Below, piece after piece: positions 1,289 through 8,882 of a DNA stretch of 12,944 nt. Under the pieces are notes generated by a model. The model saw nothing but the letters and a program-made list of their open reading frames with translations. It did not search any database and was not told where the DNA came from. This stretch comes from a virus (Duplodnaviria > Heunggongvirae > Uroviricota > Caudoviricetes): IMG/VR virus record IMGVR_UViG_2675903569_000005. The stretch is one strand, 5' to 3'. Within the stretch, counting starts at the first letter, position 1; each line of letters begins with the position of its first letter. The translations under genes were made by a program, and so were the position numbers.

Positions 1289-1561
1289 TTACCTCCAGAT
1301 CCGTTGCTGGAAAGTGCGGGACGGACGTGGTGGGCGTTCGGAATAAGGCAGCCTGACAGAGATTATCCAGTGCCGATAGTCGAGACTGAGAGCTTTCTTA
1401 ACCTCGAACCCGCGCCTGCGGTAAGAATGAATCAGCCATTCGGCCTGTTCTTCAGTACATGGTGGGTGTTGGTACCAGTCGGTTTTAAATGCGTGTGAAC
1501 GCCGCTCATGCCGGATGGCAAGGTCGGTATCAGAATTGTGAAATTTGGTTTTGTGCGCCAT
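1289..1561 (-). CDS. Hypothetical prophage protein, 90 aa (occupies the rem position of Qin)
   Basis: ORF in the track with ATG start at 1561, stop 1 nt before the next gene start, same strand as the operon. Only a weak SD-like AGAGAA upstream. No recognisable motif. Confidence 0.45.
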   Translation of the reverse strand: MAHKTKFHNSDTDLAIRHERRSHAFKTDWYQHPPCTEEQAEWLIHSYRRRGFEVKKALSLDYRHWIISVRLPYSERPPRPSRTFQQRIWR

Positions 1562-1633
1562 CTGTTTTCTCTGCTGGCGCAGCAGGTGTCAGGTGTTCAG
1601 GCTGACGTGCGAATTGTAAACCAGAATGCCAGG

Positions 1634-1660
1634 AAAAAACAAAACCCGCCGAAGCGGGTT
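1634..1660 (-). terminator. Rho-independent terminator downstream of hok (probable hok mRNA 3' end)
   Basis: On the minus strand, hairpin AACCCGC-UUCG-GCGGGUU (plus 1643..1660) is followed at once by UUUUGUUUUUU (plus 1634..1644), about 70 nt past the hok stop. Confidence 0.6.
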
Positions 1661-1728
1661 AAGTGCGGGTGCGTTGAGGATGCCTGACACATCAGAGGTG
1701 GCGAGGGATTTCTCCCCCGCCAGGTCTC

Positions 1729-1884
1729 TTACTCCTCAGGTTCGTAAGCTGTGAAGACAGCGACCTCCGTCTGGCCGGTTCGGATTCGTACCTCGCAGAG
1801 GTCTTTCCTCGTTACCAGTGCCGTCACTATGACGGTTAAACAGATGACGATCAGGGCGATTAACATCGCCTTTTGCTGCTTCAT
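1729..1884 (-). CDS. hokD: Hok-family type I toxin (HokD/RelF-like), 51 aa
   Basis: Internal ATG at 1884 of the 70-aa track ORF gives MKQQKAMLIALIVICLTVIVTALVTRKDLCEVRIRTGQTEVAVFTAYEPEE, which matches my recollection of E. coli HokD throughout. AAGGAG lies 9 nt upstream of this ATG. Confidence 0.85.
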   Translation of the reverse strand: MKQQKAMLIALIVICLTVIVTALVTRKDLCEVRIRTGQTEVAVFTAYEPEE

Positions 1885-2143
1885 AGCCTGCTTCTCCTTG
1901 CCTTTCGGCACGTAAGAGGCTAACCTAGATTTGCCGTTCATAGATTGAGCCTCAGATTAATGTTAAGCGTCTTGCAGGACGCGTAATGTTAACTGGGGCT
2001 TTTCTCTATCTGCCTTTTGGTGTTCATGCCTGAGACAGATAGCCTCAAGCACCCGCAGTCATTCTACTTAACTAAGATTTCCCCGCAAACCGTTTTTGTC
2101 CGGCACAGTAAATATCCAACTAAACCAATGGCGTTCGCTGTAT

Positions 2144-2323
2144 TTACCGCCAGTATTCAATGCACATGACCGCCATGAACACCCCTAAAAAAAGGGCATT
2201 TATATATCCAAATATTAATATCAAAACATCAACTTTTTCCATATACCTTGCTGTGAAGATGATGGGCATACATGATACGAACAACCAGAACGCAACAAAC
2301 AAAAACTGCAATGCGTTTTTCAT
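2144..2323 (-). CDS. Small hydrophobic protein, 59 aa, two predicted TM segments; function unknown
   Basis: ATG at 2323 preceded by AGGAGG with a 4-nt spacer. Product MKNALQFLFVAFWLFVSCMPIIFTARYMEKVDVLILIFGYINALFLGVFMAVMCIEYWR. The track ORF starts at an upstream GTG (2362). Lies in a markedly AT-rich islet (about 2150..2420). Confidence 0.45.
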   Translation of the reverse strand: MKNALQFLFVAFWLFVSCMPIIFTARYMEKVDVLILIFGYINALFLGVFMAVMCIEYWR

Positions 2324-2552
2324 TATTCCTCCTACAATCAATGTGCAATTACATTTAAACACACCTCAATTTGGCCGGACATATAAATATCTAAACCAGA
2401 AAAAATCACTTACATAGCGTTACAAACTCTTTAGTCTAAATATTCATCGTAAAACATTCCCCATACTTATCAGCCCGTTCTGCGCCAGGTAGCTCATTGC
2501 CTTATCTGGGAATCTGTAATCAGGTTTCCAGATGCTGGTGGATTTTCGCGTT

Positions 2553-2810
2553 TTAGTTGTTCATAAAAGTGCACAGCTTTAACCAGTTCTTCTGATGTAA
2601 CCGGGACTGGCGGGGCAGTGAATAAGGCCTGAATTTCATAGTTCGGCCTGTCGTTACAATCCTCTTTTTTCGGTACATATTTCCAGTCACCAGACCACTA
2701 CTTCCCCTGAAAGTCCGTAACGCCTTTTTTTTCACGTAGCGATATCGCCATGCCACTGTTTTTGCTTGCCCCGCCGTTTCATGCCCTTCCTGATAATTAA
2801 CCTCGCTCAT
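2553..2810 (-). CDS. Hypothetical ORF, 85 aa in frame 1, with probable frame discontinuity; a start-less -1 frame stays open to 2494
   Basis: ATG at 2810 overlaps the stop of the upstream 58-aa gene (ATGA). The -1 frame is open from 2697 to a TGA at 2494..2496 and looks more protein-like (EDCNDRPNYEIQALFTAPPVPVTSEELVKAVHFYEQLKRENPPASGNLITDSQIRQ) but has no start codon. A8 and A6 homopolymers and an A-AAA-AAG heptamer sit at the frame junction. Confidence 0.35.
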   Translation of the reverse strand: MSEVNYQEGHETAGQAKTVAWRYRYVKKKALRTFRGSSGLVTGNMYRKKRIVTTGRTMKFRPYSLPRQSRLHQKNWLKLCTFMNN

Positions 2811-2983
2811 TCATCGCCCCACTCATCACAATATGCTTCGACCGGAGTTTTTCCTGCTTCATAATCATCACGCCATGCTTCAGCATCAGCAGCACTGCCA
2901 CCACGTAACTCTGCATAGTCCATTAACAGTTCATGCCATTCTTCAAAACTGACGTTGTATTTAGTTGAACCAAAATCAGCCAT
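2807..2983 (-). CDS. Small highly acidic protein, 58 aa; unknown function
   Basis: Not in the track (below 60 aa). Hand translation from ATG 2983: MADFGSTKYNVSFEEWHELLMDYAELRGGSAADAEAWRDDYEAGKTPVEAYCDEWGDE. Start overlaps the stop of the upstream 60-aa gene (ATGGCTGA) and its stop overlaps the next start (ATGA). 16 D/E against 4 K/R. Confidence 0.5.
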   Translation of the reverse strand: MADFGSTKYNVSFEEWHELLMDYAELRGGSAADAEAWRDDYEAGKTPVEAYCDEWGDE

Positions 2984-3158
2984 TTTGTTCTTCCTCTTCG
3001 TCTTTTATTTCGTGATATGAGTAATTGCAGTAGTTAAAGAAAATATCTTTTGCTTCGTCATGTATTTCATCAGGCGTCGCACCATCATCCACTTCGAATT
3101 CATCCTCGAAATCTCCACCGGCTATTCCCGTTTCAATAATTATTTTAAACTTTCGCAT
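2976..3158 (-). CDS. Small highly acidic protein, 60 aa; unknown function
   Basis: Track ORF MRKFKIIIETGIAGGDFEDEFEVDDGATPDEIHDEAKDIFFNYCNYSYHEIKDEEEEQNG, 19 D/E against 5 K/R. Translationally coupled to the 58-aa gene. Upstream is an AGGAGG followed by a GC hairpin and then the ATG. Confidence 0.5.
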   Translation of the reverse strand: MRKFKIIIETGIAGGDFEDEFEVDDGATPDEIHDEAKDIFFNYCNYSYHEIKDEEEEQNG

Positions 3159-3251
3159 TTAACTACCGCCCTTTCGGGCGGCCTCCTGATGTTCTGAGGG
3201 TGCAGAAATCCCTCCGGTTAAGGATTAAATTTTTAACAGAGCTAAATTTAA

Positions 3252-3608
3252 TTATTCAGTTCTGGATTTTGTCGCCCTGCGTATCCGCGCTTTCGCGTTA
3301 CGCTCAATCTGAATTAGCTTTTCTATATTTTTTCGCCTTTCCCGCTCCTCCTGACGCAAGAGCCTTACATCATCTGCCAGTCTGGTTTCTCTTTTCGCCA
3401 CAGAGAGCATCCAGTCAAATGGCTCCACAACTGCACCGCAGATTTTACAGCGGACCTGACGCTCTTTTTCGTCAACCCGGACAGAGGCGTGATGACAATA
3501 TGGTCTTTCCGATGGCTCATAAAGAAAATTAACCTGATTACGAGGGTCATCCTCTTTTACCGGAAATAAAACGATATTGCTTAACTCATCCTCTGGTTTT
3601 ATTTCCAT
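3252..3608 (-). CDS. Hypothetical protein with Cys/His cluster (CHH ... CKIC) and a basic, probably coiled-coil C-terminus, 118 aa
   Basis: ATG at 3608 preceded by AAGGAGAGGAG. The track ORF extends in frame to a GTG at 3665 (137 aa), which has its own AGGAGG upstream, so the start is ambiguous. Confidence 0.5.
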   Translation of the reverse strand: MEIKPEDELSNIVLFPVKEDDPRNQVNFLYEPSERPYCHHASVRVDEKERQVRCKICGAVVEPFDWMLSVAKRETRLADDVRLLRQEERERRKNIEKLIQIERNAKARIRRATKSRTE

Positions 3609-3665
3609 GCTCCTCTCCTTTGATGCGAATGCCAGCGGTAATTGAAGCCTGATAGCTAATTTCAC

Positions 3666-4088
3666 TCACAGTACCGCCTCCTGAAAATTACCCTGATAGA
3701 AAGCCAGTACACGCTGCATAGCTTCACTCTTCCGGCACTCGCGACAGATTATGTTTAGGCGACTGTCGTAGCGACGTATTTCTCCGTCAGGTAACGACCA
3801 GATAAGGTCCGGATCAACCACAACCGGTTTCTTCAGCTTTGCCCTCGATAATTTTTTGCGGGCATTTTGCCAGTCTTTACGAGCCTGTTCAGACGGGAAT
3901 AACCCGTAGCCAGAATTGTATACATCGCCACTGGCAACCAGCTCTCTGGCCAGAACGCTCATCAGATATCTTGTTGCCCCAGTTTTAGTTTCCAGTTGTC
4001 GTAACGTCTCGCGCCCACTCTGGCGTACGAGTTCAACAACCTGTCCTTTAATTTTTTCCCGCTCTTCTTGTGTAAAAACTTTTGCCAC
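3666..4088 (-). CDS. Hypothetical early-region protein, 140 aa, directly downstream of the replication gene
   Basis: Track ORF with GTG start at 4088 and AGGAGG 4 nt upstream. Same strand and tight spacing with neighbours. No family recognised. Confidence 0.55.
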   Translation of the reverse strand: MAKVFTQEEREKIKGQVVELVRQSGRETLRQLETKTGATRYLMSVLARELVASGDVYNSGYGLFPSEQARKDWQNARKKLSRAKLKKPVVVDPDLIWSLPDGEIRRYDSRLNIICRECRKSEAMQRVLAFYQGNFQEAVL

Positions 4089-7801: not shown

Positions 7802-7854
7802 TTTCTGGTGACGTTTGGCGGTATCAGTTTTACTCCGTGACTGCTCTGCCGCCC
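7802..7854 (+). ncRNA. dicF: DicF small RNA (ftsZ-targeting sRNA of the dicB operon)
   Basis: TTTCTGGTGACGTTTGGCGGTATCAGTTTTACTCCGTGACTGCTCTGCCGCCC followed by TTTTT matches my recollection of the 53-nt DicF sequence, and it lies between ydfC and dicB as in Qin. Confidence 0.8.
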
Positions 7855-8028
7855 TTTTTAAAGTGAATTTTGTGATGTGGTGAATGCGGCTGAGCGCACG
7901 CGGAACAGTTAAAACCAAAAACAGTGTTATGGGTGGATTCTCTGTATCCGGCGTTAATTGTTAACTGGTTAACGTCACCTGGAGGCACCAGGCACCGCAT
8001 CACAAAACTCATTGTTGAGGGCGCGATA

Positions 8029-8217
8029 ATGAAAACGTTATTACCAAACGTTAATACGTCTGAAGGTTGTTTTGAAATTGGTGTCACTATCAGTAATCCT
8101 GTATTTACTGAAGAGGCCATTAACAAAAGAAAACACGAACGGGAGTTATTAAATAAAGTATGCATTGTTTCAATGCTGGCCCGTTTACGTCTGATGCCAA
8201 AAGGATGTGCACAATGA
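8029..8217 (+). CDS. dicB: Cell division inhibitor DicB, 62 aa
   Basis: ATG 8029 with GAGG upstream gives MKTLLPNVNTSEGCFEIGVTISNPVFTEEAINKRKHERELLNKVCIVSMLARLRLMPKGCAQ, matching recalled DicB. The track ORF carries an upstream in-frame extension. Confidence 0.85.
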   Translation: MKTLLPNVNTSEGCFEIGVTISNPVFTEEAINKRKHERELLNKVCIVSMLARLRLMPKGCAQ

Positions 8218-8477: not shown

Positions 8478-8519
8478 ATTTGGCGGTATCAGTTTTACTC
8501 CGTGACTGCTCTGCCGCCC
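8478..8519 (+). ncRNA. dicF: Second DicF copy; 5' end hidden in the N-run
   Basis: ATTTGGCGGTATCAGTTTTACTCCGTGACTGCTCTGCCGCCC plus TTTTT is identical to the 3' 41 nt of copy 1 including the terminator. The 5' 11-12 nt fall in or next to the gap. Confidence 0.55.
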
Positions 8520-8693
8520 TTTTTAAAGTGAATTTTGTGATGCGGTGAATGCGGCTAAGCGCACGCGGAACAGTTAAAACCAAAAACAGTGTTATGGGTG
8601 GATTCTCTGTATCCGGCGTTAATTGTTAACTGGTTAACGTCACCTGGAGGCACCAGGCACCGCATCACAAAATTCATTGTTGAGGACGCGATA

Positions 8694-8882
8694 ATGGAAA
8701 CGTTATTACCAAACGTTAATACGTCTGAAGGTTGTTTTGAAATTGGTGTCACTATCAGTAACCCTGTATTTACTGAAGATGCCATTAACAAGAGAAAACA
8801 CGAACGGGAGTTATTAAATAAAATATGCATTCTTTCAATGCTGGCCCGTTTACGTCCGATACAAAAAGGATGTGCACAATGA
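8694..8882 (+). CDS. dicB: DicB paralog (copy 2), 62 aa, diverged
   Basis: METLLPNVNTSEGCFEIGVTISNPVFTEDAINKRKHERELLNKICILSMLARLRPIQKGCAQ. Differs from copy 1 at K2E, E28D, V44I, V47L and in the C-terminal LRLMPK to LRPIQK. Confidence 0.75.
   Translation: METLLPNVNTSEGCFEIGVTISNPVFTEDAINKRKHERELLNKICILSMLARLRPIQKGCAQ

Follow-up and report, generated by a model that had tools for sequence, protein, structure and literature searches.

GhoT, a protein of about 57 residues, has two predicted transmembrane helices. T4 Imm and HK97 gp15 are small inner-membrane exclusion proteins of phages, encoded by optional accessory genes. In the Qin prophage of Escherichia coli K-12, hokD follows relB and relE, and the integration of relBE at the start of hok has been described as a secondary insertion (PMC6379469). 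Among the published papers that we searched, we found none that counts a protein-coding gene 5' of hok as part of a hok locus. Here, we analysed a stretch of 12,944 nucleotides (IMG/VR record IMGVR_UViG_2675903569_000005; hereafter, the window), which is a Qin/Rac-type lambdoid prophage of E. coli. A first-pass annotation of this DNA, which gave the K-12 order relB-relE-hokD correctly, placed an uncharacterised operon in the relBE position upstream of hok. The new element of this segment is p59, a gene just upstream of hok that is unannotated in RefSeq. Apart from it, the interval is made up of a pseudogene and accessory genes of an ordinary phage kind.

Results

RefSeq and phage annotations of near-identical loci give the gene order, on one strand, as cro-ydaT-rep-DUF977-Zn-ribbon-p60-p58-pseudogene-(p59)-hok-DUF968-RusA-Q. 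The features of the segment are the following:

1643-1660, minus strand: terminator-like hairpin and T-run 3' of hok (intrinsic-terminator scan)
1729-1884, minus strand: hok, 51 aa (Pfam Hok_Gef PF01848, 81.6 bits against a cut-off of 22)
1729-1941, minus strand: mok, 70 codons, containing the nested hok
1879-2054, minus strand: hok mRNA leader (Rfam RF01794 'sok', 112.4 bits against a gathering score of 59, model positions 1-157 of 157)
1883-1898: insertion site of the relBE-ydfV-flxA-ydfW-IS block; the 15-bp ATAGCCTGCTTCTCC is duplicated at both block ends
2061-2088, minus strand: hok promoter-like site TTGCGG-16-TAGAAT (8/12, a consensus match only)
2102-2443: AT-rich islet carrying p59, 342 bp, GC 0.354, with homology breakpoints at 2101 and 2444
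2144-2323, minus strand: p59, a 59-aa ORF with two predicted transmembrane helices (ORF translation and hydropathy)
2328-2333, minus strand: Shine-Dalgarno sequence AGGAGG of p59, 4 nt 5' of its ATG (from the sequence)
2444-2810, minus strand: pseudogene of the phrog_660 family, with 2 nt gained in an A-run, a TAG stop and a 163-nt internal deletion
2807-2983, minus strand: p58, 58 aa, pI 4.05, 16 D+E, three predicted helices
2976-3158, minus strand: p60, 60 aa, pI 4.06, 19 D+E, DUF7167/phrog_1997
3159-3187, minus strand: p60 initiation region, with AGGAGG at 3182-3187, a hairpin at 3166-3181, then 7 nt and the AUG

The first-pass annotation had described a 59-aa protein with two transmembrane segments and an AGGAGG ribosome-binding site on the same strand as hok, a frame-discontinuous ORF, and two acidic mini-proteins. 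All of these are present, and all lie on the minus strand. The Zn-ribbon gene next to p60 gave only a sub-threshold PADLOC match, to MTase_II (E 0.033).

The hok locus and the relBE insertion

On sequence grounds, the neighbouring locus at 1643-2088 is a complete, self-contained hok/mok/sok type I toxin-antitoxin locus. The RF01794 match lies on the hok mRNA strand and extends from the 5' end through to the hok start codon, and the promoter-like site ends about 7 nt 5' of the leader start. RefSeq annotates the hok gene as hokD (protein WP_000813254.1). With a promoter-like site of its own, a full leader and a terminator-like hairpin, hok is more than the terminal gene of an operon.

Qin-type relatives carry an inserted 3.3-kb block (IS-ydfW-flxA-ydfV-relB-relE) at 1883-1898, right at the start of hok, and the p59 islet and the acidic genes still lie upstream of this block. 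Two Qin-type loci (L002 and L006) keep both the relBE block and the p59/acidic segment, whereas K-12 has lost the leader together with p59 and the acidic genes. Hence, K-12 Qin does differ from the window at this place, as the first-pass annotation held, but relBE does not replace the segment.

An AT-rich islet carries p59

In 200-nt windows, GC ranges from 0.33 to 0.39 within the islet and from 0.45 to 0.56 on its flanks, and the islet as a whole (0.354) compares with 0.47 for the entire window. The sharp AT-rich islet seen in the first reading is real, but comparison with locus L004 moves its limits from 2150-2420 to 2102-2443. Neither L004 nor Stx phages have a counterpart of the islet, which occurs in 1553 of 5426 E. 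coli genomes, at about 1630 places. Its description as a moron holds insofar as it is an accessory cassette of differing GC, present in some loci and absent from others; an own promoter or terminator was not found by consensus scan. Two features were discarded because they were within chance expectation: a 25-nt imperfect direct repeat on either side of p59 (2095-2119 and 2370-2394, 72% identity), and 10 nt of the p59 coding sequence (2174-2183) that are complementary to positions 2019-2028 in the hok leader.

The p59 protein has a GRAVY of 1.31. Its hydrophobic segments span residues ~4-24 and ~32-55 and are separated by the loop TARYMEKVD. The N-terminus is positive and the loop neutral to acidic, a charge distribution suggesting that p59 forms an N-in/C-in helical hairpin in the inner membrane, with a short loop exposed to the periplasm. 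The Shine-Dalgarno sequence, which reads AGGGGG in about half of the relatives, is not occluded by structure (z = -0.9), and RNA folding of the 5' region is no different from that of shuffled sequences. A simple consensus scan upstream of p59 gave no promoter of at least 9/12, the sole 8/12 matches overlapping the Shine-Dalgarno sequence, and a similar scan found no terminator-like hairpin 3' of p59 in 2144-2054. Promoter and terminator consensus scans around both clades of p59 (see below) likewise gave nothing convincing. Because these consensus scans found neither an own promoter nor an own terminator, p59 would presumably be transcribed by read-through from upstream. As for an antisense RNA, the islet has no match to known Rfam families and its plus strand no promoter-like site by consensus. 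An 85-aa ORF on the plus strand (2160-2417), named 'hornerin' in some phage records, was rejected because stops close it in clade 2.

RefSeq has no feature under the p59 match in 40 of 40 records spread evenly through the 1569 matching, and RefSeq/PGAP annotates nothing under the p59-family ORF in the 65 of 65 matching records listed, for either clade. A GTG-start form of the ORF was formerly annotated in CFT073 as 'hypothetical protein c1418'. Literature searches on DUF7167, the peptide sequences and c1418 returned nothing relevant, and none on p59 expression; one match for c1418 belonged to another numbering, referred to NarX and was set aside. In Pfam, p59 matched no family at E <= 0.1, including holins, toxins and GhoT_OrtT (assuming that this model is in the searched Pfam-A copy).

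Two clades of p59 indicate coding constraint

A phmmer search against 1.84 billion proteins revealed a second clade of p59 in E. coli, represented by P0043, which has the same length and shares 25 of 59 residues with zero indels. P0043 matched TIGR03647 weakly (E 0.031; 14.5 bits, cut-off 26), which we attribute to transmembrane composition and disregard. Clade 1 is found in about 1550 of the 5426 complete E. coli genomes (~29%) and clade 2 in 1045 (~19%). Only these two clades were found, both from Escherichia/Shigella; no third one was found by phmmer on the 1.84 billion representatives, in GTDB genomes, in IMG/VR or in a metagenome scan with the two-clade alignment. Clade 2 stands alone in a prophage remnant, without partners of the p58/p60 type.

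At 59% nucleotide identity, the two clades agree in start, stop, length and frame, and this frame is the only one open in both, the other five being closed in one or both. Homology between them extends from the ATG to about 20 nt past the stop. Nei-Gojobori estimates between clades are 0.33 for pN and 0.72 for pS, and 14 of 24 identical residues are encoded by different codons. In total, 22 positions are invariant across clades, including a C-terminal E-x-W-R. The conserved residues S17, C18, P20, T24 and N42 are polar or kinking residues within the helices, and they form no amphipathic pattern. The ORF is intact in 10 of 10 E. coli loci selected by DNA, even where p60, p58, phrog_660, the methyltransferase gene or hok is broken. 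Among metagenome loci, it is intact in 24 of 26 assessable clade 1 copies and in 14 of 14 clade 2 copies. Taken together, these comparisons indicate that p59 is a genuine membrane-protein gene under long-term coding constraint; the existence of clade 2, the lack of indels and a pN below pS bear out the first reading of the 59-aa ORF as a real gene.

Disrupted copies of p59 do occur. Within each clade, copies are 95-100% identical. All seven polymorphic sites of clade 1 are non-synonymous (7/7, with 0 synonymous), the replacements being conservative (V/A, V/I, I/M, Y/H), and recent evolution of p59 is therefore not distinguishable from neutrality. The density of polymorphisms in p59 relative to its flanks (7/180 vs ~18/209) was not used as evidence because the loci had been picked by protein similarity.

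The acidic proteins and the pseudogene

The acidic pair is made up of p60, for which a beta-hairpin followed by a long helix is predicted, and p58, which matches the C-terminal part of phrog_519. The match of p60 to DUF7167 (Pfam PF23768) has 51.9 bits against a gathering score of 24.4 and covers profile positions 1-60 of 60; p60 also matches phrog_1997 (E = 6e-30). The GC hairpin CCGCCC-GAAA-GGGCGG of the p60 initiation region is common to the MFE and centroid folds. The two genes overlap by 8 nt at the p58 start, and the p58 stop overlaps the start of the pseudogene (ATGA). The tight coupling reported in the first-pass annotation extends to these two overlaps, but not to p59, whose start lies 120 nt past the original stop of the pseudogene and which is coupled to nothing.

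AlphaFold2 models of p60 and p58 reached pLDDT values of 79.5 and 77.8, respectively. Foldseek searches of the PDB with these models found nothing at E <= 0.001, and a PDB sequence search with both proteins gave nothing meaningful. Matches in BFVD were limited to uncharacterised phage proteins, one of them of 149 aa with p58 as its C-terminal part. Homologues of p58 were found in 198 phage records, including virulent Ackermannviridae, and those of p60 in 26, including virulent Enterococcus phages; beyond close E. coli-type relatives and Klebsiella phages, the two organism tallies scarcely overlap. Both p58 and p60 are small acidic cytoplasmic phage proteins that are translationally coupled in this window. 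Each of them is found alone in other phages, virulent ones included, and we therefore regard them as generic phage early accessory proteins.

The frame-discontinuous ORF proved to be the pseudogene at 2444-2810. Its lesions were mapped against intact relatives of 171, 119 and 104 aa, and it has AAAAAAAA at the position of AAAAAA in these relatives. The longest ORF left in the pseudogene matches phrog_660 only with its residues 2-31 (E = 0.006), whereas the 171-aa relative (L009) covers profile positions 34-193 of 193 (E = 4e-75). RefSeq labels the equivalent gene 'frameshifted; internal stop'. As a working member of an operon, this ORF is dead: it is a decayed remnant, an outcome that the first-pass annotation had itself named as refuting its reading and that applies to this ORF.

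Searches of Pfam, NCBIfam and PHROGs with p58, p60, p59, P0043 and intact phrog_660 returned only DUF7167 and PHROGs of unknown function. The first-pass view of the genes as uncharacterised holds. PADLOC gave no matches at E <= 0.1 for p59, P0043, p58, p60 or phrog_660. For these genes, no defence or toxin-antitoxin match in PADLOC, Pfam or NCBIfam reached any curated cut-off.

Distribution of the cassettes

The acidic pair is present in 1752 of the 5426 E. coli genomes, at 2619 places, and the entire stretch 1650-3700 in 878. Three loci (L007, L105 and L106) have the islet without p58/p60, and L004 and ArgO145 have p58/p60 without the islet. In Qin-type loci with an intact p59, p60 and p58 are pseudogenes. 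The idea of a single co-inherited operon or module does not survive these differing counts (1553 for the islet, 1752 and 878) and separate occurrences. A toxin-antitoxin, abortive-infection or superinfection-exclusion module is likewise unsupported, given the lack of PADLOC, Pfam and NCBIfam matches to defence or toxin-antitoxin families and of co-inherited partners.

Comparing what sits upstream of hok in related prophages, as had been suggested, places the p59 islet 5' of hok in some loci and not in others. The junction between the islet and the hok leader was found in 1563 genomes, against 1553 with the islet. In every copy examined of both clades, hok sequence follows directly 3' on the same strand, and none of the ~2600 genome copies of p59 is apart from it. 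In clade 2, a 3' remnant of hok lies 55 nt downstream in all 13 metagenome loci with enough flank. Sequence resembling the hok leader is far more widespread (20,569 places, in all 5426 genomes). Moreover, p59 is intact in loci whose hok has been interrupted by the relBE/IS block (27 of 92) or, throughout clade 2, truncated, and the recombination breakpoint at 2101 falls exactly between the islet and the hok locus. Many hok loci have no p59, and p59 outlasts the destruction of hok; the best explanation for their adjacency is tight physical linkage, inherited from a shared ancestral cassette. The constancy of this arrangement in ~2600 copies could also reflect a functional tie.

Discussion

We consider it likely that this part of the prophage is a mosaic carrying a genuine p59 gene, which is transcribed by read-through and linked to hok by descent. 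The interval would form the tail of a rightward early transcription unit, 'nin-like', between the replication genes and hok-DUF968-RusA-Q. Its accessory region would be a mosaic of independently assorting cassettes and not one functional operon: p60/p58, the dead phrog_660 gene, the p59 islet and the self-contained hok/mok/sok. Within such a mosaic, p59 might possibly be an accessory membrane protein acting on a host envelope component, for example in exclusion or in modulation of membrane proteins, a role that we propose only tentatively. It would act during prophage induction or leaky expression. In our judgement, p59 would not be half of a toxin-antitoxin pair.

The first reading of the locus, in which p59 and the coupled acidic proteins form one toxin-antitoxin, abortive-infection or superinfection-exclusion operon, now appears extremely unlikely. 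The genes do share one strand, and the overlaps between p60, p58 and the pseudogene suggest translational coupling. In addition, p60, p58, phrog_660 and p59 are colinear in 69 of 73 IMG/VR loci, chosen for close relatives of p59. This colinearity is confined to one prophage lineage, though, and the islet and p58/p60 occur without each other. Against this reading also stand the lone occurrence of p58 and p60 in virulent phages, their decay in Qin-type loci where p59 is intact, the dead gene and the 120-nt gap that precede p59, the zero PADLOC matches, and a second clade without such partners. The distribution already largely refutes it. We also find it improbable that p59 is a functional part of the hok locus, either as a membrane partner with a modulating or opposing effect on Hok or as a second effector delivered together with it. 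The adjacency of p59 and hok in every copy examined fits this explanation, as do the lack of a detectable terminator between p59 and the hok leader and the prediction that both are small inner-membrane proteins. Yet hok without p59 is far commoner (20,569 leader-like against ~1,630 islet places), p59 remains intact where hok is split or truncated, hok has its own promoter-like site and leader, and a recombination breakpoint separates the two. That p59 defines a family of hok-associated small membrane proteins working with hok, as a modulator or antidote of Hok or as a co-effector co-transcribed with the leader, is in our opinion decidedly unlikely; if true, some prophage hok loci would be three-component systems.

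Two further explanations concern p59 alone. It is unlikely that p59 is a stand-alone small membrane toxin of the GhoT/OrtT or kil type, made upon derepression of the early operon and damaging the membrane. In size and two-helix hydrophobic architecture it resembles GhoT/OrtT (57 aa), it would be expressed from a repressor-controlled early operon, no promoter of its own having been found, and it lies in AT-rich DNA, which is typically silenced by H-NS. However, p59 has no Pfam match to GhoT_OrtT, holins or toxins at E <= 0.1, and its ribosome-binding site is of consensus type and unoccluded, with no antisense promoter or RNA detected. Moreover, 1045 genomes have clade 2 intact, as an isolated gene without a recognisable antidote in its vicinity, and the conserved residues are polar or kinking instead of amphipathic. 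Quite improbable, too, is a p59 that has lost its function or never had one: an ORF still open in young, near-clonal DNA and hydrophobic because its sense strand is T-rich. The high identity within clades, the exclusively non-synonymous polymorphisms, the missing PGAP call, the T-rich sense strand and the existence of disrupted copies would agree with this. What weighs against it is the comparison between clades, in which start, stop, length and frame are kept without an indel at 59% nucleotide identity, pS exceeds pN more than twofold, no second frame is open in both, 22 positions including the E-x-W-R are invariant, and homology ends at the borders of the ORF.

The p59 family, conserved and yet unannotated in RefSeq, belongs in catalogues of small proteins. 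Always accompanied by hok sequence, yet surviving a broken hok, it also raises a concrete question on prophage hok loci.

Comparison with known systems

With T4 Imm and HK97 gp15, p59 shares a likeness by analogy, no homology being detected and an own promoter or terminator of p59 not having been found. GhoT and OrtT resemble p59 (59 aa, two transmembrane helices) in size and topology only; they differ from it in that p59 has no match to their family, no adjacent GhoS-like antitoxin and another pattern of conserved residues. The lambdoid nin and exo-xis/ea regions have the same location, on the early rightward strand with the replication genes on one side and RusA/Q on the other, and likewise consist of short, overlapping, mosaic and uncharacterised ORFs. 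In Stx phage ArgO145, the same p60-p58 pair is found among Ead/Ea22-like, HNH and DUF4014 genes. Unlike in the lambdoid nin region, none of the four ORFs of the segment matches a named Nin protein in Pfam, NCBIfam or PHROGs. Among the hok/mok/sok loci (hokD of Qin, hokW of 933W, parB of R1), that of the window is a complete member, and its leader shares 92% identity with the sokW region of phage 933W. Most of these loci are without p59, which is unlike Hok in sequence. A further counterpart is relBE-hokD (relBEF) of K-12 Qin, with the same prophage type and the same hokD gene, but in the window the hok locus is uninterrupted and lacks relBE. This comparison shows the Qin hok region in its ancestral, uninterrupted form, and the exact site of the relBE block, together with its 15-bp flanking repeat, refines the published origin of K-12 relBEF (PMC6379469).

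Prophage setting and features of the stretch

The interval's home is a Qin/Rac-type lambdoid prophage, as judged from a 99.9% identical RefSeq locus of E. coli JNEC-KY173 and from the sequenced phages vB_EcoS-640R1 and 813R8. One strand reads cro, ydaT-like, replication protein, DUF977, Zn-ribbon protein, DUF7167, hypothetical, frameshifted pseudogene, hokD, hypothetical, DUF968, RusA and Q; the opposite strand holds repressor, dicF/dicB, exonuclease, xis and int. By this gene order, the flagged stretch is the accessory 'nin-like' portion of the rightward early operon. It is ordinary prophage accessory DNA, and its sole modestly interesting element is p59, the gene of a 59-aa predicted membrane protein.

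All features described by the first-pass annotation (the 59-aa ORF, an AT-rich islet, a broken ORF and two acidic mini-proteins) are present, on the minus strand, which carries every gene of the stretch. The islet is real, but its limits had been placed at about 2150..2420 and the true run is longer.

Features of the islet and of the hok locus
2444-2513: surviving original 3' end of the phrog_660 pseudogene
2102-2443: islet, GC down to 0.33-0.39
2328-2333 (-): AGGAGG, consensus Shine-Dalgarno sequence of p59
2144-2323 (-): p59 ORF, 59 aa, after AGGAGG with a 4-nt spacer
TTGCGG-16-TAGAAT (-): hok promoter-like site, ending 7 nt upstream of the leader 5' end
2054-1879 (-): hok leader, Rfam RF01794, 112 bits, end-to-end match on the hok mRNA strand
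1660-1643 (-): terminator-like hairpin 3' of hok

A 25-nt imperfect direct repeat (2095-2119 / 2370-2394, 72% identity) brackets p59 and its Shine-Dalgarno sequence, and 10 nt of the p59 coding sequence (2174-2183) are perfectly complementary to the first hairpin of the hok leader, near its apex (2019-2028); for sequence of this length, chance would give both. In L004, a relative without the islet, a 27-codon hydrophobic ORF, MTWPEAFTTVGIAMAVALVVYSICRWG (about 3155-3238(-)), overlaps the phrog_660 gene stop by ATGA and ends just short of the hok promoter. Its similarity to the second p59 helix is suggestive only, and it might be a p59 remnant or an alternative to it.

Two database labels look doubtful. 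PP818812.1 (L004), named 'Actinobacillus phage vB_Apl-pPE4', shares 91-96% identity with E. coli lambdoid prophage DNA over the region, and NZ_CM135829.1 (L006) is a 4.83-Mb assembly labelled 'DH5alpha' whose Qin prophage retains genes missing from K-12. The window also carries DicF sRNA twice (7803-7854 and 8478-8519), one copy full length (76.7 bits) and the other covering model positions 11-52 (55.6 bits), owing to a tandem duplication of 665-bp period (repeat 7814-8113 / 8479-8778, copies 98% identical).

p59 is a conserved gene with two clades

No RefSeq feature lies under p59 in any of 40 listed matches, evenly spread through the 1569 matching records, and some GenBank annotations name it 'hypothetical protein' (e.g. 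c1418 of CFT073). Close copies (91-100% identity) occur only in Escherichia and Shigella. One diverged relative, likewise 59 aa long, emerged when 1.84 billion representatives were scanned in full with phmmer. P0043, the common form of the diverged clade 2, is present exactly once in each of 1045 complete E. coli genomes out of 5426, in a degraded prophage remnant that occupies the Rac attachment site between ttcA and uspF. No third clade was found in GTDB genomes, IMG/VR or metagenomes.

The window-type clade 1 and clade 2 share 25 of 59 residues without indels, and their nucleotide homology runs from the ATG to about 20 nt beyond the stop. Different codons are used at 14 of 24 identical residues, pN is 0.33 against a pS of 0.72 (Nei-Gojobori; dN/dS ~0.19, with dS saturated), and the other five frames are closed in one or both clades. 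The 22 invariant positions include W13, S17-C18, P20-I21-I22, T24, Y27, F38-G39, N42-A43-L44 and E56-x-W58-R59. p59 has thus been under long-term coding constraint, and we conclude that it is a real protein-coding gene family. An 85-aa plus-strand ORF opposite it (2160-2417(+), 'hornerin' in phage records) was rejected, as it contains stops in clade 2.

The ORF is intact in 10 of 10 loci picked by DNA similarity alone, including those of Qin type in which p60, p58/phrog_660, the methyltransferase and hok are all broken. In metagenomic loci, picked by N-terminal patterns, 24 of 26 assessable clade-1 and 14 of 14 clade-2 copies are intact. All seven polymorphic sites of clade 1 are non-synonymous, though conservative, so recent constraint is not demonstrated.

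In the decayed remnant (L096 4984-7259, ttcA-uspF; L095 326-2563), clade-2 p59 is accompanied by part of an integrase gene, a 3' piece of hok and an ABC-3 pseudogene. One IMG/VR contig has, beside the integrase fragment, three ORFs (284, 281 and 191 aa) whose sizes and order fit cytolethal distending toxin; by eye, the middle one resembles a nuclease.

Linkage of p59 to hok

hok is a self-contained locus, with its own leader (the RF01794 model begins where the mRNA does and ends at the hok AUG), promoter-like site, overlapping mok and terminator-like hairpin. PGAP calls a 59-aa ORF at 1508-1687(+), overlapping the terminator region and the start of a 90-aa minus-strand gene. The islet edge lies 13 nt upstream of the hok -35 hexamer; in L004 and Stx phages homology breaks exactly at 2101.

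The gene of p59, the RefSeq-unannotated, conserved small predicted membrane protein, is joined to hok in all copies examined. From the p59 stop to the leader start, every clade-1 copy examined has 90 nt. In clade 2, a deletion removed the hok promoter, leader and 5' half, and the 3' remnant (80% identity to window 1816-1751) begins 55 nt past the p59 stop. As both clades adjoin hok sequence, the adjacency is old. The link is asymmetric as well: all genomes contain hok-leader-like sequence, at 20,569 places that mostly lack p59, and p59 keeps an intact frame in loci whose hok has been split (27 of 92 loci) or truncated. To us this suggests that the two are tightly linked by descent and that p59 has a separate role; a functional tie to hok is improbable.

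The annotation had placed this segment where K-12 Qin carries relBE. The homology of K-12 to the window runs as far as 1898, 14 nt short of the hok ATG, and relE adjoins there. Qin-type prophages with smaller deletions (L002 from ECOR13, and L006) carry at that site a 3.3-kb IS-ydfW-flxA-ydfV-relB-relE block, and beyond it the hok leader, p59 and decayed p58/p60. Therefore relBE inserted into the hok locus rather than replacing the segment, and K-12 lost the upstream part afterwards. The same 15 bp, ATAGCCTGCTTCTCC, border the block on both sides, right upstream of the hok ATG (window 1883-1898; L006 1477-1491 and 4766-4780), a pattern that resembles a target-site duplication or a microhomology junction. 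PMC6379469, citing Ramisetty and Santhosh 2016, already reports the integration; the ATAGCCTGCTTCTCC junction detail was not found in that paper.

Separate cassettes rather than one module

The broken ORF is a pseudogene: relative to intact phrog_660 relatives of 171 aa (L009), 119 aa (L004) and 104 aa (L008), it has two additional A in a run of A, lacks 163 nt internally and contains a TAG stop.

p60 (60 aa, DUF7167) and p58 (58 aa), both of pI ~4.05, are generic phage early accessory proteins. The proposed tight coupling holds for p60/p58 (8-nt overlap) and p58/next ORF (ATGA), but p59 is translationally uncoupled. Homologues of p58 occur in 198 phage records, mainly ~157-kb virulent Salmonella, Klebsiella and Shigella phages, and those of p60 in 26, including ~140-kb Enterococcus phages; the organism tallies overlap only in close E. 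coli-type relatives and Klebsiella phages. In AlphaFold2 models p60 folds as a beta-hairpin with a helix and p58 as a bundle of three helices; Foldseek matched neither model to a solved structure or a named viral protein. Ahead of p60 (3159-3187(-)), the AGGAGG sits 23 nt from the AUG, with a stable GC hairpin, CCGCCC-GAAA-GGGCGG, between, whose folding would draw the two together; such a split layout is known in a few T4 genes. p58-like sequence without p60 lies beside a DUF1187 gene on 42-64-kb E. coli plasmids (H145-H147, e.g. NZ_CP034798.1 15256-15428).

Complete E. coli genomes (of 5426) in which some place covers 80% or more of the query
Islet: 1553
Islet-hok-leader junction: 1563
Islet-phrog_660 3'-end junction: 1552
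Acidic pair p60 and p58: 1752 (2619 places, 248 on plasmids)
Whole stretch 1650-3700: 878

The islet is preceded by another gene set (204-aa protein, HNH), with p58/p60 absent, in three compared loci (L007, L105, L106); L004 has the pair but no islet, as does Stx phage ArgO145, whose left arm carries the pair among Ead/Ea22-like genes. The parts thus do not form one module.

Predicted role of p59

As neither a promoter nor a terminator was found for p59 and its Shine-Dalgarno sequence is not occluded, the gene would be transcribed by read-through of the early operon. TARYMEKVD parts its two hydrophobic stretches; with its N-terminus positive and its loop neutral or acidic, the protein is predicted to form an N-in/C-in hairpin. 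Neither p59 nor p58 has a Pfam or NCBIfam family, and PADLOC matched none of p59, p58 and p60. Given also the separate distributions and the lack of fold counterparts, the reading as a toxin-antitoxin, abortive-infection or superinfection-exclusion operon is unsupported. Our guess is that p59 may target some component of the host envelope and does not serve as the toxin of a toxin-antitoxin pair.
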